Shown piece by piece: positions 3,897 through 53,849 of a stretch of 64,000 bases of DNA. This DNA is from Candidatus Heimdallarchaeum endolithica (GTDB lineage: Archaea > Asgardarchaeota > Heimdallarchaeia > Heimdallarchaeales > Heimdallarchaeaceae). The translations under genes and the position numbers were made by a program. The stretch spans positions 658,117 through 722,116 of the forward strand of contig CP084167.1 in the NCBI GenBank assembly GCA_021513715.1. Reading direction: 5' to 3'. A model generated the notes under the pieces. The model saw only the letters and a list, made by a program, of their open reading frames with translations. It had not been told where the DNA came from and did no database searches. How positions within the stretch are numbered: the first letter of the stretch is position 1; each line of letters opens with the position of its first letter.

Positions 3897-4438
3897 TTTT
3901 TCACCTCAAAATAATTATCTTCTCTGGGATTACTTTCATTATAATATTCTTGTTGTACATATTTTCGCCAGTCGAAGTCCTTTCTAAACGGAGGAGGGCC
4001 ATCCCAGTCTTCCAACATTAGTGGAGTAAGATTAATGTTTCCTTTAAAAATCACGCCATAAAACTCATGGCATTCTCTTTCACATAATTCTGCATTTTTA
4101 CTCCATAGAGAAGTAACAGAAGATATTGTAGGATTTTCTCTATTTATCCTTGCTTTTATCGTTAAAAGCATTTTTTCTTTATAGGACCATAAATGGTAAG
4201 CAATTTCAAAATTATTCTTTTCAATCCAATCTGTAACACTTATTGTAGAAAGATGTTCAAAACCCATATCATAAGCAATCGAACAAGCATCTACTATTTC
4301 TTTAGGTTCAATAGATACCCAAAGTCTTTTTTTTCTTTGGATATTAACCTTCTTGTTTAATTTCTTACTTAAAGCCGTTACAATTTTTTCTTCTTTATAA
4401 TTATTCTTCTCTTTCTCTACTACACTCATTTTACTCAC
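3893..4438 (-). CDS. NuoC-like 30-kDa subunit
   Basis: ERECHEFYGVIFKGN signature; 4-bp overlap with NuoD-like and NuoB-like genes. Confidence 0.75.
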   Translation of the reverse strand: MSKMSVVEKEKNNYKEEKIVTALSKKLNKKVNIQRKKRLWVSIEPKEIVDACSIAYDMGFEHLSTISVTDWIEKNNFEIAYHLWSYKEKMLLTIKARINRENPTISSVTSLWSKNAELCERECHEFYGVIFKGNINLTPLMLEDWDGPPPFRKDFDWRKYVQQEYYNESNPREDNYFEVKK

Positions 4439-33237: not shown

Positions 33238-33660
33238 AATATTATTATTCCACATGTTCGAGAAGGTAAAGGAAAAGGAAAAAGTACTCGTAAGTTTCGC
33301 AGGAAACTTCATCAGTGGAACTTTTCTCTTGTCCTTGCTCTTCTCCGTCGGACACTAATATTAAGAGGTTTTGACCCTCATCGAATATTAACAATAGAAG
33401 AAAGAGGGACATCTTCTCACTGTGCTCGTTACGGGAAGAAAGTTATCCGTCCAGTAAGAGGTTTAGTTCATTGTTCTTCTTGCAATTACACTTTCCACTC
33501 TGACCTCACAGGGGCAATAAATATCGCTCGTAAGTTCCTTGGGGCTCTTTTCCGTCCTCGAGGAACAACTATCACTGATTACCTCACTGGTCAAAGGTTC
33601 AGTTCTACCCATTTCACTGTTTGCCGAGGGCTCAGCCATTGGTTGCAGTCCCAGTAGATG
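33238..33660 (+). pseudogene. 5'-truncated TnpB-like nuclease gene (zinc finger plus RuvC-III)
   Basis: No start codon; translation ...IRPVRGLVHCSSCNYTFHSDLTGAINIARKFLGALFRPRGTTITDYLTGQRF... aligns with the C-terminal ~120 aa of the intact gene at 51095-52609. Confidence 0.65.
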
Positions 33661-33720
33661 AAAAAGGACTTAACTAATTCTATCCTCTTATATTTGAGGT
33701 TTAGTTCTTTCTTTTTTGTC

Positions 33721-33800
33721 TCTCGTGGAGTGAAGAAAGATAGAAAGAAAAACTTTCTTTTCTTCTTTATGATTCCCACGATTCGTGTATGATGTCTGTC
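33721..33800 (+). ncRNA. Degenerate copy of the TnpB-associated structured 3' element
   Basis: CTCGTGGAGTGAAGA...hairpin...CTTTATGATTCCCACGATTC matches 52649-52710; the inner stem differs in sequence but stays complementary. Confidence 0.35.
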
Positions 33801-34017
33801 TCAACTCTTCATAGCATTGTATGACTTGGTTGAGTTCAAGAGATTAAACTTTTACTTGTTTTTTCTCTTGCAAGACAGAGTGCGAAAAACTTTACGTAAA
33901 AAAGTAAATCATGACAAAATACTGCATCTTCTGGTGTTTTTGATCCACATTTTGTACAATATTTCATAAACATTCACCCATATTACTACCATAGTAGTAA
34001 TACTATCTTATATAAAT

Positions 34018-34604: not shown

Positions 34605-35171
34605 CTATTTTTTTGCTTTATGATGTTTATAAATATTTTTAGTTAATGCATCAAGTAATTGAGTTAACCCTTTACCTGAAATTGCTGAGACTTCAAAGAA
34701 TTCATTGTTAATGTTCTCTCTAGCTGATGTACGGTTTAATCTAAGACAAAAAGCTTGTGCGTCTATAGGATTTAATGTTCTATTTCTTACATTAGGGTTA
34801 TTTCGAAGATCAATTTTATTTCCTACTAGAACTATTGGAATCTTCCCTTTTCTATTGTAATTGATCAATTGCTCTAACCAGAATGTTACTCTTCTAAATG
34901 TCTCTGCTTTTGTAATATCAAAAACTATAAACGCTCCATCAGCTCCTAAATACCATTTAGTTCTTTGAGGAGAGGATAATAGTTCTCTTGCAGGTAAATC
35001 ATAAAGGTCAAAAGCTACTTCTTCTCCTTGTATTGTGCGAAAAACTTTTACAATCTCCGCTTTTAGAGAAGGAACCTTCTCTTTATTTTTTTCATTTTGA
35101 ACTATTTTCTTAAATAAAGTAGTTTTACCTACGCTGTTATCACCTATAAAAAGAATCTTAAATGTGAGCAT
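34605..35171 (-). CDS. Divergent Ras-superfamily small GTPase
   Basis: G1 GDNSVGKTT, G4 GNKIDL, G5 SAISG; G3 is YDLPARE, lacking the Gly and Gln of DxxGQ. Confidence 0.7.
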   Translation of the reverse strand: MLTFKILFIGDNSVGKTTLFKKIVQNEKNKEKVPSLKAEIVKVFRTIQGEEVAFDLYDLPARELLSSPQRTKWYLGADGAFIVFDITKAETFRRVTFWLEQLINYNRKGKIPIVLVGNKIDLRNNPNVRNRTLNPIDAQAFCLRLNRTSARENINNEFFEVSAISGKGLTQLLDALTKNIYKHHKAKK

Positions 35172-35257
35172 TGTTTTTCCTCAGAAACATTCATTTATTA
35201 GTATATACTTAAAAGAATCACTTAAAGTATAAAAAATTAATGTATTAGCTACTTTAC

Positions 35258-35827
35258 TTACTTTTGATTTGATTTATCTCTGATACTTCTTCCAAGAATT
35301 TCAAAGGCTCTATCGATATTTAATCCAGTCTTTGCGCTTGTTTCTAAACAATAATTAATTACACCATACCTCTGTGTACGAAGATTTAGTTCAGTAACAT
35401 ACTTTTGAACTTGTTTGAACTTAACACTCTTTCTATCTCTTAAATCACTTTTATTTGCAAGAACGACAACAGGTACCACTCCTGAACCGTTGAATTTGTA
35501 AAGTTCATTTAACCACATTGGTAGATTTTGAAAAGAAGAAGGACGAGTTATATCAAAGACAAGTAAGGCACCTTGTGCTCCTTTATAAAAACGTGCTCTA
35601 ACTTGCTCAAACATCTGTTGTCCTGCAAGATCCCAAATTTGAAATTTCCACTTCTCATTAGGAATGATTTCTTTGTCTATTGTTGAAAAATCTGCCCCAA
35701 GTGTCATAAGATGACTGGTATTAAATCCGTATCCCATATATTGCATTCTAATAGAAGTTTTTCCTACTGCACCATCACCAATAAGAACGATTTTGAAAAT
35801 AAACAGTTTTTCTGTCATGAAGTTCAA
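35258..35827 (-). CDS. Ras/Rab-like small GTPase
   Basis: G1 GDGAVGKTS, switch I TLGADF, G3 WDLAGQQ, G4 NKSD, G5 ETSAK. Confidence 0.8.
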   Translation of the reverse strand: MNFMTEKLFIFKIVLIGDGAVGKTSIRMQYMGYGFNTSHLMTLGADFSTIDKEIIPNEKWKFQIWDLAGQQMFEQVRARFYKGAQGALLVFDITRPSSFQNLPMWLNELYKFNGSGVVPVVVLANKSDLRDRKSVKFKQVQKYVTELNLRTQRYGVINYCLETSAKTGLNIDRAFEILGRSIRDKSNQK

Positions 35828-37355: not shown

Positions 37356-40300
37356 CTATAATTTTCCTTCATTTGAGCGCTCAAAAGATGAGAATTCATT
37401 AAGAAGGCGGTCAATAGCTTCTGTGATTTCTTCTTTACTACCTGATGCAAAAGTGAAAATAACCATTTCTCCATCTATCACAAGGAGATCTTCAGGAAGG
37501 GTAACTAACCATCTATACAATGCCCCACGATTAGTGAATTCTAATGCATCCACTAAATCTTGAATAGACACTTTTTTAGCTCTTTTTGCTAGTCCTCCTA
37601 AAGTATTTCTTCTTTTAATAGACATTTGCCATTCAGCAAAAGAATCAAATCCTTCATTTAACGCTTGTTGATATGTAGGATAATCTGGAAAACCATTTTT
37701 ACTTGCTTTGCTTGCAGAAGTAAAATCAGGAGCTTTCATTTTCTTAACAAAAATTAACCCATTTTTATTTTCAGCGCCTAGTTTTTGAGCTTCTTCATAT
37801 TCTTCATAATTAGAAAAACCACCATCTTTTATCTTTTTAGCAATATCATAACTAGGAGCCCCTAACTTCTTCGTTAGTTCAAATCTTTCTTTATTTTCAG
37901 CGCCTAGTTTTTGAGCTTCTTCATATTCTTCATAATTAGAAAAACCACCATCTTTTATCTTTTTAGCAATATCATAACTAGGAGCATTAGTTTGTAAAAT
38001 TTCTAAATTCATTTTTCTTTTATTTAAACGGTAGCGAATGAAAAATACCAAGCCAACTATAAATAATAAAAATAATGATCCGATAGGAATAATGTAAAAT
38101 TTTAAAGGGTTAGAACTTGATTTTAAGGGATTTGTATTAAATATTAACTCTATTTTATCGGAAAATCCATCGTTGTCTGTGTCTGTGTCTGTAGGGTCAG
38201 TATAATAAGTATTTACTTCTTCTTCATCAGTTAACCCATCGTTGTCTGTGTCTGTGTCTGTAGGGTCAGTATAATAAGTATATTCTTCTATGTTAGTTAG
38301 CCCATCATTATCATCATCTTCGTTTGCGTTACTTGTTAATGGGTCTAAATTGTAAAGTACTTCCCACCCATCTGGCATTCCATCATTGTCTGTGTCTGTG
38401 TCTGTAGGGTCAGTATAATAAGTATATTCTTCTATGTTAGTTAGCCCATCATTATCATCATCTTCGTTTGCGTTACTTGTTAATGGGTCTAAATTATAAA
38501 GTACTTCCCATCCATCTGGCATTCCATCATTGTCTGTGTCTGTGTCTGTAGGGTCAGTATAATAAGTATATTCTTCTATGTTAGTTAGCCCATCATTATC
38601 ATCATCTTCGTTTGCGTTACTTGTTAATGGGTCTAAATTATAAAGTACTTCCCATCCATCTGGCATTCCATCATTGTCTGTGTCTGTGTCTGTAGGGTCA
38701 GTATAATAAGTATATTCTTCTATGTTAGTTAGCCCATCATTATCATCATCTTCGTTTGCGTTACTTGTTAATGGGTCTAAATTGTAAAGTACTTCCCATC
38801 CATCTGGCATTCCATCATTGTCTGTGTCTGTGTCTGTAGGGTCAGTATAATAAGTATATTCTTCTATGTTAGTTAGCCCATCATTATCATCATCTTCGTT
38901 TGCGTTACTTGTTAATGGGTCTAAATTGTAAAGTACTTCCCATCCATCTGACATTCCATCTTCATCAGTATCAGCTTTTTTGGGATTTGTACCTAAGTAA
39001 TCTTCCAAAAAGGAGGATAAACTATCATTGTCAGGGTCTACATCTGCTAAATTATTTGTTCTGGAAAAGTTTCCTGTTCCACTTAAACCCTGCCAAAAAA
39101 CATTAATACCTGAAGGTTCAAATTCTAAAGCATAAATACTATAGTCAAAACTGCCTATTAATAAATCTAGTTTTCCATCCCCATTTATATCTGCGATAGC
39201 AGGAGAAGAGTCGATATCTCCACCTGTTGTGTATGACCATATTACTGTCCCATTTTGCCCATTAAGAACATAAATCCTGTCATCTTTACTTCCTATTATT
39301 ACATCTAGTTTTCTATCCCCATTTATATCTGCGATAGCAGGAGAAGAGTCGATATCTCCACCTGTTGTGTATGACCATATTACTGTCCCATTTTGCCCAT
39401 TAAGAACATAAATCCTGTCATCTCTACTTCCTATTATTACATCTAGTTTTCTATCTCCATTTATATCTGCGATAGCAGGTGAAGAGTAAATAACTCCACC
39501 TGTTGTGTATGACCATATTACTGTCCCATTTTCCCCATTAAGAGCATAGACTAAGCTATCATAACTTCCTATTATTACATCTAGTTTTCCATCCCCATTT
39601 ATATCTGCGATAGCAGGAGAAGCGCAGATATCATATCCTGTTATATATGACCATATTACTGTCCCATTTTCCCCATTAAGAACATAAATCCTGTCATCTC
39701 TACTTCCTATTATTACATCTAGTTTTCCATCCCCATTTATATCTGCGATAGCAGGAGAAGAGTCGATATCTCCACCTGTTGTGTATGACCATATTACTGT
39801 CCCATTTTGCCCATTAAGAACATAAATCCTGTCATCTTTACTTCCTATTATTACATCTAGTTTTCCATCCCCATTTATATCTGCGATAGCAGGAGAAGAG
39901 TCGATATCATATCCTGTTGTGTATGACCATATTACTGTCCCATTTTCCCCATTAAGAACATAAATCCTGTCATCTCTACTTCCTATTATTACATCTAGTT
40001 TTCCATCCCCATTTATATCTGCGATAGCAGGAGAAGAGTGAATAGCAGCACCTGTTGTGTATGACCATTCTAATAAACCAAATTTTCCTATAACATATAT
40101 TGTATTATCAACGCTACCTACAATTACTTCTGTAACTCCATCATTGTCTATATCCGCTGCAGAACATGAAGAAACAATATAATTGTTAGTTTTGTAGTAC
40201 CAAAGTCGATTAGAAGTCAATGAATTTACCGAACTAGAGAGAGATATCTGCTGTTCTGATAATGGTAAGGAATAACTAAAACTTGGTAAATAAAATGAAT

Positions 40301-40700: not shown

Positions 40701-40729
40701 AGGTCAACTAAAATTGTAGTAAAAAAGTA

Positions 40730-41270
40730 AATCATGTCTAAAAAGTCTATTTCTTGACTTACACTGCCTGAAGGAGCAAAAGGTAATTGTAGCAGATTAG
40801 AGGACTGTAGAAAGTATTAAGGACACAAGAAGGTAAACGATCAAGGATAGGGGAAGAGAGATTTTGAGGAAACCGAAAACATGTTCAACACTACTACGAT
40901 ATTCAGGGTGATGATTATAGTTATTGAGACCAGAATAAAGACGATGAGCATGGTCTTATCCCTATTATTTATCCTAAAACTAACGCTCGTTATTCTGGTT
41001 ATCCACCATTTGTATCTATAGTCCATGAGTTGAAATTTTACGTAATTTCTTCAGGACTCTCCCCAACCAATCAACAAACTTAGCGAAAGTTGTGAAGACT
41101 GGCTTAAGAGAACATGAAAGACACAGTCTTAATTAAGTTCTCTAAGGGGTTCATCTCCTTATCCCGGGCACTCATAACTCCCAAAGGGAAGACCGGGTGT
41201 CGTAGGAGTGAAACCTACGTCTTTAAGCATATAGCTCAAGACACTAGATAAATTAGAATTAAATATATAA
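40730..41270 (-). pseudogene. 5'-truncated, indel-bearing copy of the IS4/IS5-like DDE transposase gene
   Basis: Minus-strand AHRLYSGLNNYNHHPEYRSSVEHVFGFLKISLP... aligns with the C-terminal half of the transposase at 48491-49435; degenerate right inverted repeat at about 40729-40747. Confidence 0.6.
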
Positions 41271-41286
41271 AGATAGCTGAAAAGTT

Positions 41287-41892
41287 GTGACACTCCCTAA
41301 TATCGTGTATGTATTCTTTATTTTTGCAAATGTGTTTCAGGTTGTTATTGGTCTGATAACTCCACAAACTAAAAATTTAGTTTATTACGTAAAAAAGTAT
41401 CTCATGGACATAGTAGGTCCTACAGCTGAAATTAATGAATTAAGTGTTATTACAAAAACAGGTGATATTAGTGTTAATTCACACACTACTGAAAATGTTA
41501 CAATTAACAACATTATGCTTATTTCAACTACAGGTATTATTCATTTTAGTTTAAGTGATGAAGGAATAAATTATATAAGCAATGCTCTTTCAACCACTAC
41601 TACAGGAAAGATAGAGTTCGATTTTGGAAATAATTGCACTTACAACGGAACAGAAATTAACCTTTCAACAACAACAGGAAAAATAGTTGTTTATTGTACA
41701 AATATGAATTACTTAGTCAATGTATCGTGGTTAATTTCTACAACTACTGGTTCTGTTTATGCAAATATTACTCAAGATTTTATTATTGAAAATCAATTAC
41801 AAGTTTCGTTTTTCATTACAGTAAATACTGGTTCAATAGAAGTATTAACTACTTTTCATGAAGAGCTTTTTTGTACATTTTTGTCAAATTAA
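41287..41892 (+). CDS. Hypothetical protein with STTTGKI repeats (DUF4097/adhesin-like)
   Basis: Three to four repeats of STTTG(K/S)I in a beta-rich sequence; GTG start, so the true start is uncertain. Confidence 0.35.
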   Translation: MTLPNIVYVFFIFANVFQVVIGLITPQTKNLVYYVKKYLMDIVGPTAEINELSVITKTGDISVNSHTTENVTINNIMLISTTGIIHFSLSDEGINYISNALSTTTTGKIEFDFGNNCTYNGTEINLSTTTGKIVVYCTNMNYLVNVSWLISTTTGSVYANITQDFIIENQLQVSFFITVNTGSIEVLTTFHEELFCTFLSN

Positions 41893-48460: not shown

Positions 48461-49464
48461 AAGCATGTCCAAAAATTAATTTTTATTAATGTGGGGGTTT
48501 ATGTCGGAAGTATGAATTTCTTTCAGATCATAGACCCCCACAAAGCAAGAGAATTCATAATCATTAATGAACCTTTCCTTAAGAAACTGGTGAAAGAGGA
48601 ACCGAGAGAAAGCAAGAGAGGGAGAAAGAGAATAGCAGAAAGATGGGTGATACTGGCTTTAGCAATCATTGCTAGAATAGAAGGGATAGCTTGGAGGAAG
48701 TTAGAGGAAAAGTTGTCTTTATGCGATTTTTTGATAGAAGAGGGGTGGATGAAGAAGATTCCTTCTAAATCTACTTTTCATGCAGTGTGGAGAGCGACAG
48801 AAAGTAAAATCTTAGAGCAGTGGATAATAGATTTAGGTAGGGAAATAGTGAGGAAAAAAGGCTTGAAAGCTATGGCAGTGGATAGTTCAGGGTTTAAAAT
48901 CCGTCAAGCTTCTGTTTGGCGTTTTCTCAAATGGTCAAGAGGGACACTAAAGAAAACCTCTAAACTTTTCTGGAAGATACACCTTATAGTTGGTTTACCC
49001 TCTCGAGCTATAGTCTCTCTCGCTCATTCTGCTAGTAACACTCACGATAGTAAAGTCTTCGGTTTACTCTGGCAGAAACTTCCTTCTGCACTCTTGAGAC
49101 CTTTCTTGCGATTTTATGGAGACTGTGCCTACTGGACAGAAAATATCGTTGGACTTCTTAGCCAACATTCCTTTTTCCCTGTTATTCCCCCAAAAAGTAA
49201 TGCTCGTTATCCCTCTCCTCCTCCCCTCGGACCAATAGTTCAAGCTCATCGTCTCTACCCTGGTCTGTATCGTCGTAATCATCATCCCGAGTATCGTAGT
49301 AGTATTGAACACGTCTTTGGTCTCCTTAAACTCTCTCTTCCCCCAATCCTTGATCGTTTACCCTCCACCATCCTCTCTACCTTGTACAGTTCTCTTCTCT
49401 GTTACAACTACCTTTTACTCCTTCGGACCGTTTAGTTGGTGAAAAAGAATTTTTGGACATGCTT
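48461..49464 (+). mobile_element. IS4/IS5-family-like insertion sequence (1004 bp) with perfect 17-bp terminal inverted repeats
   Basis: Left IR AAGCATGTCCAAAAATT at 48461-48477; right IR is its exact reverse complement at 49448-49464; flanked by direct repeat TAGTAT at 48455-48460 and 49465-49470. Confidence 0.8.
48491..49435 (+). CDS. DDE transposase (IS4/IS5-like)
   Basis: AVDSSGF, YGDCAY and IEHVFG...K motifs; the ATG at 48512 may be the true start. Confidence 0.75.
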   Translation: MGVYVGSMNFFQIIDPHKAREFIIINEPFLKKLVKEEPRESKRGRKRIAERWVILALAIIARIEGIAWRKLEEKLSLCDFLIEEGWMKKIPSKSTFHAVWRATESKILEQWIIDLGREIVRKKGLKAMAVDSSGFKIRQASVWRFLKWSRGTLKKTSKLFWKIHLIVGLPSRAIVSLAHSASNTHDSKVFGLLWQKLPSALLRPFLRFYGDCAYWTENIVGLLSQHSFFPVIPPKSNARYPSPPPLGPIVQAHRLYPGLYRRNHHPEYRSSIEHVFGLLKLSLPPILDRLPSTILSTLYSSLLCYNYLLLLRTV

Positions 49465-49491: not shown

Positions 49492-50838
49492 ATGACTCCA
49501 AAAGATTCTAAAAAACCTTCAGAACTAGAAAAAGCTATTTTAGAAGCAAAAGCAAAGTTACAAAATGTAGTTGCTAAAAAAGAAGGTAAATATATAAGAA
49601 AAACAGAGCTAGAGAATGCTATAAATGAAGCGTTAAAAAGCTTAAAGCCTGTTTCTGAAGAATTAATAAAGAAGAAAATAAAAACCAGTTCATTTAAAGA
49701 TGAACTAGTAAAGGCAAAGTCAGAACTAAAGCAAGTAAAACAAGAAAAAAAGAGAGTTACAAAAAACGATATGGAATTAGCTATTAAAGAAGCTATTAAA
49801 AATCTAAAACCATTAACTGAAAAAGGGAAAAAGCAAGTTTCTTCAAAAGGAGAATTAGAATTAGCTATTTTAGATGCTTTTTCAAAGCTAATTGAAGTTT
49901 CAGATGAACAGAAAAATTATGCTTTAACAAAGAAAGAACTAAAAATTATAATTAAGGATGCTAAAAATAGATTAAAGAAAGTACCAGAAAAAGAACTCAA
50001 ACATGCATTAACAAAGAAAGAACTAGAGCACGAGCTGAGAGACTTAAAAGGAAAACTAAAACCAGTCCCAGAACAAGTAAAAGTACCAGAACTTTCGATT
50101 AAACAACTTAGAACTGCCATTAAAGAAGCAAAAGTAAGATTAAAACCTGTTCCAGAGAATTTAAAGAGTATAAGTTCTATCTCAGTTGGTAGATCAATAA
50201 AAAAAGAAGGAGAAAAAATAAAAAGGAAACTATTGCCTATTCCAGGAGATGCTAAAACTTTCGAAATTCAGAACATAGAGCACATTAAACTCTTTTCTGC
50301 AGAAAGGTTGGATTTTAATAAATTCATTTCAAAACTAGAAAAACAAAAACAACAACCACTGCGTAAAATAATAATTAATCCAAAAACAAAGTTTTGTAAA
50401 ATAGAGTTAATGAACAAAGATAACCCTAATTCTCCGTATAACATTACAGGAGGAGGAGATATTTTAGAATTCACTTCAACTTACCGTTTCTTGTTTAAAC
50501 ATGGGTATATAAAAATAGAGAATAACTATCCCTTACTCTTTTCAGATAAACAATGGATTGTCTGGTATTTAAGAGAAAAAATAGAATTAACTTTCGTGGA
50601 CATAGCTTTTGCAATGAATGAAACAGTTAGAAACGTTAGAAACCTGTTTAATGAAGCTGAAAAAAGAATAAATCAAATATTAGATTTTGTTGTAGATGAA
50701 GAGCATTACCAATTAGTAGCAGCACATGCAATGAAAAGAAAAGGAGTACGTATCCAACAGATTGGAGATACTATAATTGAGCCTAAAATTACAGAAAAAT
50801 ATCTCATTGAACAACAACAACTAGAAGAATTAACTTAA
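49492..50838 (+). CDS. Lysine-rich repeat protein with C-terminal HTH-like segment
   Basis: At least six repeats of EL..AI.EA...LKPV in the N-terminal 250 aa; C-terminal LTFVDIAFAMNETVRNVRNLFNEAEKRI resembles a sigma-region-4/LuxR-type HTH. Confidence 0.45.
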   Translation: MTPKDSKKPSELEKAILEAKAKLQNVVAKKEGKYIRKTELENAINEALKSLKPVSEELIKKKIKTSSFKDELVKAKSELKQVKQEKKRVTKNDMELAIKEAIKNLKPLTEKGKKQVSSKGELELAILDAFSKLIEVSDEQKNYALTKKELKIIIKDAKNRLKKVPEKELKHALTKKELEHELRDLKGKLKPVPEQVKVPELSIKQLRTAIKEAKVRLKPVPENLKSISSISVGRSIKKEGEKIKRKLLPIPGDAKTFEIQNIEHIKLFSAERLDFNKFISKLEKQKQQPLRKIIINPKTKFCKIELMNKDNPNSPYNITGGGDILEFTSTYRFLFKHGYIKIENNYPLLFSDKQWIVWYLREKIELTFVDIAFAMNETVRNVRNLFNEAEKRINQILDFVVDEEHYQLVAAHAMKRKGVRIQQIGDTIIEPKITEKYLIEQQQLEELT

Positions 50839-51094
50839 ATTGAAGAACTTGAAAAGAAAGTAGAAATACCAAGAGAGTGGGTTATAAAAACAGCTTATAA
50901 AATAGAAACTCTGGAAGGAGGTTATTATCTATGGAAAGAGTTTCTAGGAGCATTAAACAAGGATTCTCTACTGATGATAGAAAACGACAGTTTACCCCAT
51001 GAAAAAATTTTTTGTATAAATTCTTTAGGTTTTTAAATAAATTGCTTAATTAATAAATAGAGAAAAGAAAGTGAAGAAGAAAAAGGATTAGAAA

Positions 51095-52609
51095 ATGGAG
51101 AAAATAGTGAGAACATTAAGAGTAAGAGTAAAAACAGAAAAATTAACGAAGTTCAAAAAAGATAGAATGAGAAAGATAACAGGAAGAGATACTAGAATAA
51201 TAGAAGAATATGTAAAAATAATAAGAAAAGAAGAAGAAAAAGTAATAAGAAAAATAAGCAAACAAGGAGAGATAAGACTAAAAGTGCATAAAGGCAAGTT
51301 AGATGAACTAACACTAACAACAACAAAGAAAACAAATAAGAAAAAAAGGACAGTTGTACCCTATGATCTCAAAAAAAAGTTTCCTAATTGTTCTCACGAT
51401 GAATTTCAAGAGTGTAGAGATGTAGCAGTACAACTTTATGAACAAGGATATAACAAAAAAAAGAACAAAAAAAGAAAAAAAGGATATATTTTACCACCAG
51501 TAAAACGAGCAAGAAAACAACTAATCAATAAAAATAGATTTATCATAAAACATTTGCCTAAAGGGAAAAACACTCTTTCTCGTTGGTGGGTAGGGATAAG
51601 AGACTCATTAGACACACAAAAAAGAAAAAAACGAACACATCGAAGACTATGGATACCACTAGAAATGAGTGAATATCACCAAAAAGAAATAAGAAAAGGA
51701 CAAGTAAAAAGTCTAGAATTAAAATATAACTCACAAAAAAACAGTTGGTGGGTAAATTTTCAGATAACAATTATTCCTCAAGCAGATCTCTACAAGAAAA
51801 AAAAAGTTGACTCTTCTCTTCTTCCTCCAGCTGTGCTGGGAATAGATCTGGGAGAAAAAATACCTGGAGCAGGAGTGTTATTAACATCAACAGGTAAAAT
51901 ATCTCCCAATCATATTTTCTTCTGGAAAATGAAAGAATGGAAAAAAAGGAAGTATATCTATCAACAGAAAATAAGAAGATTGCAACGAAAACTTGCAAAA
52001 AAGAAGAATACATGTAAAGACAAAAGAAGCAATAAAGGATATCAAACATTAAAAAAATTAAGAAAAAGATATCAGACGCTCTCTCATGCTTATTTATATG
52101 CTTTTATCAATGAGTTGTGGAAAGATATTGTTGAACTTACACAGGATTATAATTTAGTCGTTGTTGTTGGTTACCCCAAGGGAGTACACTCGAAATTAAG
52201 AAAAAAAGTAATGAATCAAGACTACAGACCACAGAACTCTTCTACTCGTTTTACTCGTAAAAAGGTTCACCCGTGGAATTACTACCAAATAGTTACTCTT
52301 CTTCGACGAATGTGTCTTCTAAATGGGTTAGAACCCGAACGTATCCTCACCTTACAGGAATATCTTACCTCTTCTCTTTGCTCAAAATGTGGACGAAAGA
52401 CTATTCGACCTGTTAGAGGTCTTGTTTATTGTTCTCATTGTCATTATACTCTTCACTCTGACCTTACCGGTGCAATCAACATCGGGAAATTGTTTCTTCG
52501 TTTTCTTTTTCGCCCCCGAGCATCTACACTAGTTGATTATCTTACTGGACAACACTTTAGTCTCACCTTTTATACTTCCTTCAGGGGTCTCAACCAGTGG
52601 TTGAAATAG
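51095..52609 (+). CDS. tnpB: TnpB-like RuvC nuclease (IS200/IS605 OrfB, Cas12/Fanzor-related)
   Basis: RuvC-I LGIDLG, RuvC-II region around FINELW, zinc finger CSKCG...CSHCH, RuvC-III HSDLTGAINIG; lysine/arginine-rich N-terminal half. Confidence 0.8.
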   Translation: MEKIVRTLRVRVKTEKLTKFKKDRMRKITGRDTRIIEEYVKIIRKEEEKVIRKISKQGEIRLKVHKGKLDELTLTTTKKTNKKKRTVVPYDLKKKFPNCSHDEFQECRDVAVQLYEQGYNKKKNKKRKKGYILPPVKRARKQLINKNRFIIKHLPKGKNTLSRWWVGIRDSLDTQKRKKRTHRRLWIPLEMSEYHQKEIRKGQVKSLELKYNSQKNSWWVNFQITIIPQADLYKKKKVDSSLLPPAVLGIDLGEKIPGAGVLLTSTGKISPNHIFFWKMKEWKKRKYIYQQKIRRLQRKLAKKKNTCKDKRSNKGYQTLKKLRKRYQTLSHAYLYAFINELWKDIVELTQDYNLVVVVGYPKGVHSKLRKKVMNQDYRPQNSSTRFTRKKVHPWNYYQIVTLLRRMCLLNGLEPERILTLQEYLTSSLCSKCGRKTIRPVRGLVYCSHCHYTLHSDLTGAINIGKLFLRFLFRPRASTLVDYLTGQHFSLTFYTSFRGLNQWLK

Positions 52610-52775
52610 ACCTATGTACTATTATACCATAATGGTAGAATACTTAGTACTCGTGGAGTGAAGAGTTCTACTCTTCTTTATGCGTCCCACGATTCCTAGA
52701 TGATGTCAGTATGCTCAAACATCTGTTTCAGCGTTTGTATTCTTCCACTGACGTAGTAGGAGAAAATTGTACAAA
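52610..52775 (+). ncRNA. Candidate TnpB-associated guide-RNA scaffold (omega-RNA/reRNA-like) and element right end
   Basis: Immediately after the tnpB stop: near-palindrome TACCATAATGGTA (52625-52638), nested stems CGTGG...GAAGAG-loop-CTCTTC...CCACG (52649-52700), ending near palindromic TTGTACAA (52767-52774); core conserved with compensatory changes at 33721-33800. Confidence 0.4.
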
Positions 52776-53849
52776 AAATTAACTCATGAAGAAGAATACT
52801 TGATAAACGCTATAGGATTAGGAGGAGAAATAATACCTGACATCAAGAGCAATTTCAAAAAACTAATTGAAATATTCGCAGAAGCTCCTGACGATCTTGT
52901 AAAAATAGGAGATACAGCCTTTTTCATGGGTTATATGGATAATATTTATTCTAGCCAGTTTTGGACAATAAAAAACTTCGTTAAAGGAAACAAAAAAAAT
53001 TGGAAAAAAGATTTTATAAAAATAGCAATAAAAGCATATTCAAAAGCTCTAGATAATATTATTCCATCAGTTAACCCAGTAAAGTACGGTTTGCTAATAA
53101 ACGATTTAGGAGTATTTTACTTATTTCTGTCAGAATTAGAGCAAACTAAAAAACACACTATAGAAGCAATCAAAAATTTACTTGATGCAAAAAAAGCATT
53201 ACCTTTAGAGTTCTTTAAAACAAAACATAGTGATATTTGTTATAATTTAGGACTGGCTCATTTATTTTTGTCTAAAATAGAAGAAAAAGAAGAAAATATT
53301 AAACAAGCTATTCTAAACTTTAACGTTGCTCTGCAAGGAAGAACGTTAAGAATGTATCCATTGAAACATGCTATAACACAAGTCAATCTAGGAATTGTCT
53401 ACCAAAAATTAGCTGAAATCGAAGAAACCTCTTTAAATTGTACATTAAGTATAGAATCTTATAACAATGCTTTGAGATCCAACACTCTAGACGTCATGCC
53501 AACAGAAGCAGCGATGATATATAACAACATAGGTCTATCTTATTGCACTTTATCTGATGTACAGGAAACAGAATACAATATTTCACAAGCTTTAATTGTT
53601 TTAAATGATGCTTTGACCATCAGAAATGAAGCACAGTTTCCTGTTGAATATGCAATTACAACAAGTATTTTAGGAAAAGCTTATACAATTCTAGCAACAG
53701 TAAAAGAAAAAAAAGAATATTATGAAAAGGCAATATCAGCATTTAATAAAACAATTAAGATATTCATCAAGAAATATGAAGACTTCTACCAAGCAATAAT
53801 ACAAGAAAAAGAAAAAGTAGAAGAGAAACTAAAAGAAATAGCGCAATAA
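52767..53849 (+). CDS. TPR-like helical repeat protein
   Basis: Recurrent (N/Y)N(L/I)G..Y..L...E pattern every ~40 aa; start ambiguous (TTG at 52767, TTG at 52800 or a downstream ATG). Confidence 0.5.
   Translation: MYKKLTHEEEYLINAIGLGGEIIPDIKSNFKKLIEIFAEAPDDLVKIGDTAFFMGYMDNIYSSQFWTIKNFVKGNKKNWKKDFIKIAIKAYSKALDNIIPSVNPVKYGLLINDLGVFYLFLSELEQTKKHTIEAIKNLLDAKKALPLEFFKTKHSDICYNLGLAHLFLSKIEEKEENIKQAILNFNVALQGRTLRMYPLKHAITQVNLGIVYQKLAEIEETSLNCTLSIESYNNALRSNTLDVMPTEAAMIYNNIGLSYCTLSDVQETEYNISQALIVLNDALTIRNEAQFPVEYAITTSILGKAYTILATVKEKKEYYEKAISAFNKTIKIFIKKYEDFYQAIIQEKEKVEEKLKEIAQ

Follow-up and report, generated by a model that had tools for sequence, protein, structure and literature searches.

A solo tnpB gene within a discrete insertion element

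A 64,000-nucleotide (nt) stretch of contig CP084167.1 of Candidatus Heimdallarchaeum endolithica, here called the window, carries on its plus strand a gene for a TnpB-like protein of 504 amino acids (51095-52609). All coordinates are window positions, position 1 being its first letter, and the related loci and contigs compared with the window are numbered L001-L080. The tnpB gene is the sole gene between the ends of a mobile element that spans positions 50999-52787 of the plus strand, 1,789 bp when counted from ATG to CAT, and was delimited by empty sites and by ends like those of multi-copy relatives. A left terminal inverted repeat of 21 bp (ATGAAAAAATTTTTTGTATAA, 50999-51019, plus strand) lies 96 nt upstream of the start codon, measured from the element end, and its right counterpart, also of 21 bp (TTGTACAAAAAATTAACTCAT, 52767-52787, plus strand), closes the element 178 nt downstream of the stop codon; 17 of the 21 positions agree between the left end and the reverse complement of the right end. 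Equivalent inverted repeats of 21-25 bp were found in relatives of the element. Upstream of the gene, an A/T-rich TATA-like box was read from the sequence (GGTTTTTAAATAAATTGC, 51028-51045, plus strand), and a conserved TTTTTATAGG box occupies the matching position in relatives, suggesting a possible archaeal promoter.

The insertion was defined by comparison with the empty site present in four syntenic contigs of related metagenome-assembled genomes (MAGs; L077-L080). These contigs read CCCC-AC-GAAGAAG where the window reads CCCC-[ATG...CAT]-GAAGAAG; over a wider interval, the empty contigs show …GACAGCTTACCCC-AC-GAAGAAGAATACTTG… and the window …GACAGTTTACCCC-[ATG…CAT]-GAAGAAGAATACTTG…. Joining the left flank, AT and the right flank restored one reading frame, and a protein from related MAGs, 89% identical, carries exactly the restored junction (…NDSLPHEEEYLINAIG…). 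These empty orthologous sites thus identify the element as a discrete insertion in codon 9 of a gene for a tetratricopeptide repeat (TPR) protein.

The dinucleotide AT is present on both sides of the element, while the empty site holds a single dinucleotide, and the breakpoint is therefore ambiguous by 2 nt. Three parsings, i.e., ATG...CAT ends and no duplication, a duplication of AT, or insertion 3' of CAT, are the same at the empty site, and a 2-bp duplication would account for the junction as well as a crossover at an AT core would. The empty site does rule out that all 1,789 nt were simply inserted with no 2 nt shared. In related MAGs the interrupted gene is one ORF (open reading frame) of 625 amino acids (P0037), which also covers the C-terminal half of the window ORF at 49492-50838; where that ORF has a His codon, the window has a TAA stop (50836-50838). 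The right end provides, in its final 21 nt, an in-frame TTG start for the downstream TPR part (52767-53849; MYKKLTHEEEY…), which may still be translated.

No transposase with matching ends was found by a regular-expression search for the same inverted repeats in the window and the related loci compared, and no Y1 (HUH) TnpA was detected in the element or among the neighbouring ORFs. The only transposase gene nearby encodes an IS5-like DDE enzyme (48491-49435) and sits in its own 996-bp insertion sequence (48466-49461), which is bounded by 17-bp inverted repeats (AAGCATGTCCAAAAATT), is flanked by an apparent 6-bp duplication (TAGTAT) and is absent from the syntenic locus L077. Since this DDE gene belongs to a separate insertion sequence, no TnpA adjoins tnpB, as a preliminary description made from the sequence had already noted.

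A divergent TnpB with an alternative catalytic glutamate

The protein matched the Pfam family Cas12f1-like_TNB over residues 396-463 with 40.2 bits, against a cutoff of 26.3. The NCBIfam model guided_TnpB aligned with residues 88-464 at 54.5 bits, below its cutoff of 100, and Pfam OrfB_IS605 returned 17.7 bits, below its cutoff of 30.5. A sequence search of the PDB with the single protein was nearly empty; a family profile gave PDB alignments. Thirty-six homologues were detectable, all from Heimdall or Thor Asgard MAGs and metagenomes, and 23 of them were assembled in an alignment. An AlphaFold model built on 23 homologues (predicted local distance difference test score, pLDDT, 79) was submitted to Foldseek and aligned full length with Cas12f and with ISDra2 TnpB (E 1e-13 to 3e-11, TMq 0.49-0.55). 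The TnpB-like ORF that had been proposed is thus borne out by domain and fold, and the sequence data indicate a full-length member of a divergent lineage.

The residues invariant in the 23 homologues aligned include D251, E422, C429, C432, C446, C449 and D456. D251 is the RuvC-I aspartate in the motif GIDLG (51845-51847, plus strand). The four cysteines form a CxxC..CxxC zinc finger (52379-52441, plus strand) that falls within the Pfam TNB domain, and D456 is the RuvC-III aspartate in HSDLTGAINIG (52460-52462, plus strand), aligning with 'naDlNgA.NI' of solved Cas12f and TnpB proteins. The RuvC-I, RuvC-II, zinc finger and RuvC-III order given in the preliminary description is therefore right in outline, both RuvC aspartates holding on alignment, except for RuvC-II. 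The canonical RuvC-II glutamate, expected about 50 residues before the zinc finger, is absent, and its column holds G359 (VVVVGYPKG, 52169-52171, plus strand), a nearly invariant glycine in the family that faces the E of 'iqmEdL' of Cas12f proteins in the profile-to-PDB alignments. An alternative glutamate, E422 (52358-52360, plus strand), precedes the first CxxC by six residues; in the same alignments this position is D, N or P in canonical proteins.

In rearranged RuvC-II sites, the compensating glutamate is located on strand beta-5, not beta-4 (Altae-Tran et al., PMC10691335). G359 falls within strand 353-361 of our AlphaFold model and E422 closes strand 417-422, a predicted placement consistent with that shift. 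E422 is thus assigned, from the alignments, as the residue that stands in for the RuvC-II glutamate, which is the known 'alternative-E' arrangement. The RuvC-I motif reads D-L-G, with L252 nearly invariant, and not D-P-G, placing the window TnpB outside the pro-Fanzor/Fanzor clade. A 10-residue insertion in a low-confidence loop of the model brings the D-to-E spacing to 168 in the window copy, versus about 158 in relatives.

A conserved structured region between the stop codon and the right end

The 178 nt that follow the stop codon (52610-52787, plus strand), comprising the 3' untranslated region (UTR) and the right end, constitute the candidate omega-RNA scaffold. This region folded at -44 kcal/mol, with a z-score of -2.8 relative to shuffled sequences. 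Stem 1 (52616-52650) pairs GTACTA with TAGTAC and has an inner TACCA/TGGTA hairpin; it derives from the fold, and relatives have a variable stem in that place. Stem 2 (52651-52692) consists of an outer helix, TCGTGG (52651-56) with CCACGA (52687-92), enclosing GAAGAGT/ACTCTTC. These are the nested complementary segments that had been noticed after the stop codon, and they are followed by a second, multi-stem domain, stem 3 (52694-52761), which was defined by the fold and by an anchor test. Stem 3 is closed by UCCUA/UAGGA, holds a conserved GAUGAU motif (52699-52704) and has inner stems at 52703-52710/52747-52754 and 52711-52720/52725-52734. All three stems are on the plus strand.

A structured 3' element with compensatory changes is kept in dozens of related Asgard loci. 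The order of its parts is common to four sequence groups, the one of the window included, despite their differing sequences, and the single-stranded motifs AUGNNU followed by CC, and GAUGA, are retained across groups. In stem 2 the length of the inner hairpin differs between copies, from about 7 bp in the window to roughly 30-40 bp in L035, on a base that does not change. The stem 5' of GAUGA occurs in at least nine complementary versions (for example GAGGA/UCCUC, UCGUG/UGCGA, CAAGA/UCUUG, CAGGA/UCCUG and UCCUA/UAGGA). When both strands of this stem 3 closing stem were placed by anchors independent of pairing, 4.56 of 5 positions paired on 34 copies, versus 1.89 with the partner slid. In the most diverse group (14 sequences), 95% of the cells were paired in the RNAalifold structure. 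Compensated pairs numbered 22, versus 8.9 +/- 2.1 in column shuffles (0 of 500) and 1-9 in slid controls, shared ancestry being corrected for by the slid controls and not by the column shuffles; the structural conservation among homologues that the preliminary description calls for was thus recovered. The structure is specific to the sense strand because it contains many G-U pairs.

A near-identical relative of the window copy, L071, shows no substitution in 172 nt of the 3' region and 22 in the ORF, where about 2.5 would be expected in the 3' region at the ORF rate. This comparison lends weak support to constraint on the scaffold.

A covariance model was built from 12 sequences of one distant group (2a), none of them from the window or of the H. 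aukensis type. An unfiltered search of the complete window with this model recovered three scaffolds, two of which belong to the further copies described below, and each hit stops exactly on the mapped right-end base. The window scaffold was matched at 52652-52787 (9.6 bits, E about 0.06, rank 5). This score is marginal alone, and the hit takes its weight from stopping at the very base mapped as the right end. A search with Rfam returned no gathering-score match anywhere in the window, and permissive thresholds over 52300-52900 gave chance-level matches only.

Guide-adjacent pairing, predicted guide position and candidate transposon-adjacent motif

The last six nt of the element, ACUCAU (52782-52787, plus strand), form the 3' strand of a long-range pairing whose 5' strand is an internal motif, AUGCGU in the window (52680-52685, plus strand). 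Among the related copies the pairing is AUGAGU:ACUCAU in 28, AUGAUU:AAUCAU in 12 and AUGAGU:ACUCGU in one, the second version being a two-sided change, i.e., a compensatory G>U/C>A switch between subfamilies. Thorarchaeota relatives (L038-L068) have an equivalent pairing, GAGUGA:UCACUC, and their right ends finish in (G/A)TTCACTCA, as in L043 at about 4250-4265. In the omega RNAs of ISDra2 and IS607, nucleotides flanking the guide pair with a loop to form a pseudoknot, and the scaffold takes in flanking bases that are fixed or duplicated (Yoon et al., PMC10711439). Judged by its sequence, the arrangement in the window is the same as this guide-adjacent pseudoknot.

The right flanks of more than 40 related copies diverge straight after …CAT, and the guide would therefore start at 52788. 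The preliminary description had placed the guide just 3' of the scaffold, at about 52775; the relative position stands, since the scaffold reaches the right end, and the start moves 13 nt downstream. The predicted guide, GAAGAAGAAUACUUGAUAAA (52788-52807, plus strand), begins with the first base past the mapped right end, a guide length of 16-20 nt being assumed by analogy with known TnpBs. This 20-mer has a single occurrence in the window, and the empty orthologous sites carry it unchanged, as a homing model requires.

The left flank CCCC (50995-50998, plus strand), together with AT, suggests VCAT as a candidate transposon-adjacent motif (TAM). Flanks were tabulated by eye for 21 independent insertions with both ends defined, group 2b being left out. 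The base before the left AT was C in 19 of the 21, and the base preceding it was C, G or A and never T, while right ends always have T at that position (…CTCAT or …ATCAT). Given about 35% T in these genomes, the chance of finding no T in 21 insertions is roughly 1e-4. We hypothesise that VCAT is a TAM which would spare the element's own right-end junction (TCAT) while the empty site is cut.

Related elements, truncated copies and a miniature derivative

Candidatus Heimdallarchaeum aukensis contains at least nine copies of a related 1.86-kb element with sharp ends and inverted repeats. They are homologous from about 165 nt upstream of the start codon to about 250 nt downstream of the stop codon, and their ends are formed by ATG......TTTTTTACGTAA and the reverse complement of this sequence. 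In a second group of relatives the inverted repeats are 25 bp long and differ in sequence, but the termini are again ATG...CAT. The window subfamily itself is known from its single full copy in the window and from one further sequence; scanning metagenomes with a gapped stem-2 pattern returned four contigs only, with no copies of this subfamily beyond L071 and L074. In group 2b (L016-L032), homology reaches about 430-640 nt upstream of tnpB, over an extended 5' stretch that is conserved and contains a strong hairpin (GGTTCCTCTACTGG…CTAGAAGAGGAACC), and no counterpart of the right-end inverted repeat was found in that upstream region. L075 and L076 had been considered as an occupied/empty pair at a polyprenyl synthase gene and were dropped, as there is a one-base or indel difference at the junction and the left junction is not present.

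The window holds a second copy of the scaffold, which had been described as a decayed version of the first. The core is indeed shared (82% DNA identity over 45 nt), but the copy, at 33254-33912 on the plus strand, is a 5'-truncated member of the H. aukensis-type subfamily and not a decayed twin. It is 88% identical to positions 1213-1862 of the L001 element, retains the last ~122 codons, the full scaffold and the right end, and shares 59% amino acid identity with the window TnpB over residues 383-504 (tblastn). The covariance model matched it at 33724-33912 with 22.6 bits (E 2e-6). Similar 5'-truncated copies occur in L003 (4238-4932) and L076 (about 650-1153); all these copies keep only the last 500-700 bp, from the part coding for the C terminus through the scaffold to the right end.

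The third scaffold lies in a 381-bp miniature inverted-repeat transposable element (MITE) on the minus strand (41025-41405), which has the inverted repeats of the family and no ORF. It carries a complete omega-like scaffold with the AUGAGU and GAUGA motifs and a terminal ACUCAU at 41025 (nhmmer E 1e-6), and the covariance model matched it at 41025-41197, minus strand, with 37.8 bits (E 1e-11). Such an element could provide an additional guide for a TnpB produced elsewhere. Its target site is a 10-bp palindrome, GTCC-AT-GGAC. In the adjacent segment (40710-41024), a 27-nt stub resembling the right end of the TnpB element (…TAAAAAAGTAAATCAT) abuts a reversed IS5-like fragment (CATGTCTAAAAAG…), which also abuts the MITE, making a small nest of mobile-element debris.

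The ORFs of the Thorarchaeota relatives (L038-L068) have a C-terminal extension of ~100 residues that overlaps the scaffold region. Two GTTCACTCA motifs stand 335 nt apart downstream of a Thor tnpB in L072 (7211-7554), with an apparent tRNA gene on the opposite strand between them. The ORFs flanking the relatives in L055, L059 and L072 gave no informative Pfam matches when Cas1 or another transposase was sought.

Genomic surroundings

The window has a G+C content of 30.5%, and its closest proteins and syntenic contigs all come from Heimdallarchaeaceae MAGs. ORFs around the element encode TPR proteins, an unannotated lysine-rich protein and a transporter of the major facilitator superfamily (MFS). 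Highly regular repeats of ~150 nt (…ATATCTGCGATAGCAGGAGAAG…) occupy positions 39500-40100, probably inside a gene for a repeat-domain protein on the minus strand. Two adjacent genes for small Ras/Rab-like GTPases, which are eukaryote-like signature proteins of Asgard archaea, lie at 34605-35827, also on the minus strand, and agree with the taxonomic assignment.

Comparison with known TnpB systems

The peel-and-paste, or homing, activity is the established role of IS200/IS605 TnpB. Like ISDra2 TnpB, the window protein is a compact RuvC nuclease with a zinc finger, its 3' scaffold runs to the right end, the guide would come from the flank and guide-adjacent nucleotides pair with an internal loop. 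The fold match to structure 8h1j (E 3e-11) agrees with this likeness, while sequence similarity to ISDra2 TnpB is weak (34.7 bits with the family profile, versus 51 bits for Fanzor2 and up to 91 bits for Cas12f proteins). Unlike ISDra2 TnpB, it has the alternative glutamate and is longer by ~100 residues, with an N-terminal part rich in lysine; no part of the scaffold precedes the stop codon, and the element and its neighbourhood hold no Y1 TnpA. The ends also differ: IS200/IS605 elements have asymmetric hairpin ends and insert 3' of a TAM, whereas the 21-bp inverted repeats found here are flanked by AT at either end. Because of the inverted repeats and the AT junction, the element is not a classical IS200/IS605 member.

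The protein also answers to the description of the 'Ealt' TnpBs, which have a D-hydrophobic-G RuvC-I motif (Yoon et al. 2023, PMC10711439): G stands in place of the canonical E, an invariant E lies six residues before CxxC and RuvC-I reads D-L-G; the published regular expression fits the window TnpB except for its D-to-E spacing of 168. A rearranged RuvC-II site is likewise a feature of the 'RIIr' branches (Altae-Tran et al. 2023, PMC10691335). Pro-Fanzor and Fanzor proteins have the alternative glutamate in common with the window TnpB, which lacks their DPG RuvC-I motif. In its ends, the element resembles Fanzor2* and DDE-associated TnpBs, having symmetrical inverted repeats, a solo nuclease gene that would be mobilised in trans and a short putative duplication that would form the last scaffold bases. 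It differs from them in its archaeal host, in AT here versus the TA of IS630/mariner, and in that no DDE gene with matching ends was found. The TnpB of IS607 (ISXfa1) offers a further, partial parallel, as a double-strand transposon with the same dinucleotide at both junctions, a scaffold that absorbs flanking bases and a pseudoknot; in IS607, however, the core is GG, a gene for a serine recombinase precedes tnpB and long inverted repeats are lacking, whereas the window element has an AT core, no recombinase gene and clear inverted repeats.

The 'Cas1H-Asgard' TnpB groups (PMC10691335) are also found in Asgard hosts, and a motif of the (G/A)TTCACTCA type was reported downstream of Asgard Cas1-linked tnpB genes in that study. 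The Thorarchaeota relatives, at about 30% identity, end in this motif. In contrast, the Heimdall elements end in AACTCAT or AAATCAT, and no Cas1 homologue stands beside the relatives examined. Membership of the family in 'Cas1H-Asgard' may be regarded as a lead.

Proposed function and alternative explanations

Taken together, the data make it probable that an Asgard-specific TnpB lineage is represented here by a non-autonomous insertion element, with an omega-RNA scaffold that reads its guide from the flank. According to this proposal, the 3' region would be transcribed in the sense direction as omega RNA; the scaffold would bind TnpB, and read-through into the flank would yield a guide of 16-20 nt from 52788. 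The complex would then recognise the guide-matching sequence beside a short motif, probably VCAT, at an element-free site and cut it, and repair from an occupied copy would restore or spread the element. Transposition itself would occur in trans, by a transposase acting on the inverted-repeat ends and leaving an AT duplication or using an AT crossover.

Several results weigh against this proposal. The long-range pairing of the window, AUGCGU:ACUCAU, has one C.U mismatch (5 of 6 pairs), and the window scaffold is the most reduced variant, with a score of only 9.6 bits (E about 0.06 over the whole window) in the covariance model from distant relatives. The NCBIfam TnpB score falls short of the model cutoff. 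Compared with L071, which is 98.5% identical, there are 11 non-synonymous and 8 synonymous codon differences, and the window copy may thus be under weak constraint. Finally, no transposase was found, so that mobility rests on copy number and the empty site.

Part of this evidence would be expected if the window copy were a decaying relic of a genuine TnpB/omega family that no longer functions. Its helix mismatch sets it apart from 41 of 42 other copies, and the reduced scaffold with its low model score, the 11:8 ratio to L071, the 10-residue insertion in a low-confidence loop and the truncated and MITE derivatives nearby all point the same way. We nevertheless judge this unlikely, since the ORF is intact over 504 codons with all catalytic and zinc-binding residues present, neither inverted repeat is damaged, compensation in stem 3 is complete, and an independent metagenome contig has the same 3' region without a difference over 172 nt. 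Loss of nuclease function could also have led to a domesticated or inactive TnpB acting, like TldR proteins, as an RNA-guided repressor of the adjoining TPR gene, with a guide covering the gene start. The missing canonical RuvC-II glutamate, the location of the predicted guide at the 5' end of the downstream ORF and the small size of the subfamily, limited to the window copy and one other sequence, would agree with such a role. Known TldRs, however, have lost catalytic residues and are immobile (PMC10691335), whereas the window family keeps an invariant catalytic triad of both aspartates and the alternative glutamate, together with the zinc finger. Its relatives are multi-copy with unrelated flanks, and the window copy is a recent insertion that interrupts a TPR gene intact in four related MAGs, which makes repression a very unlikely explanation.

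The ends of IS200/IS605 elements use DNA hairpins. The 3' element might accordingly be only a transposon right end, i.e., transposase-binding DNA, possibly with hairpins, preceded by an ordinary 3' UTR. The last 21 nt are a terminal inverted repeat, so that conservation is partly at the DNA level, and covariation alone does not separate RNA from single-stranded DNA. On the other hand, the conserved structure extends about 140-250 nt inside the inverted repeat, much further than an end-binding site, and its many G-U pairs would be A.C mismatches on the other strand. The left end shares the inverted repeat and none of the structure, the pairing of the terminal 6 nt with an internal loop matches the known omega-RNA pseudoknot, and inverted repeats argue for a double-strand transposase with no need of hairpins. 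An explanation by end DNA is thus very unlikely, and an omega-RNA scaffold remains the preferred assignment.

Significance for the TnpB lineage of Asgard archaea

The basic logic of the TnpB/omega-RNA system was known beforehand, and alternative-glutamate TnpBs, TnpBs on inverted-repeat transposons and Asgard-specific TnpB groups are already described (PMC10711439, PMC10691335). Multi-copy 'transposases' were noted in Heimdallarchaeum genomes by Wu et al., and a text search of their paper found no mention of TnpB, OrfB, IS605 or IS200. What is new is the mapping of the element, the AT junction with its support from the empty site, the architecture of the scaffold and the predicted start of the guide in this lineage, the scaffold-only MITE and the interpretation of the GTTCACTCA-type motif as one strand of a pseudoknot.

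These results add an Asgard-restricted branch of compact RNA-guided nucleases with a predicted scaffold, guide start and probable TAM, which is enough for constructs to be built and tested as genome-editing candidates; VCAT-GAAGAAGAATACTTGATAAA is the target predicted for RNA-dependent cleavage under our proposal. The GTTCACTCA-type motif downstream of Asgard tnpB genes receives a concrete explanation as the guide-adjacent pseudoknot strand. In archaea, TnpB with the alternative active site is carried by mobile elements whose ends are inverted repeats and which show an apparent AT duplication, and the scaffold-only MITEs, devoid of TnpB, raise the question of which transposase moves the family.

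More speculatively, and with a low probability in our estimate, the Heimdall/Thor alternative-glutamate lineage may have moved from IS200/IS605- or IS607-type ends onto cut-and-paste-like inverted-repeat elements, the 2-bp AT duplication becoming the end of the scaffold and VCAT protecting the element's own right-end junction. The transposase would then be one new to TnpB, possibly an Asgard Cas1 homologue or an unrecognised DDE enzyme. If this switch of end type and this reading of the AT duplication were true, the family would be a prokaryotic counterpart of Fanzor2* and Fanzor1 in eukaryotes, within the archaeal group closest to eukaryotes.

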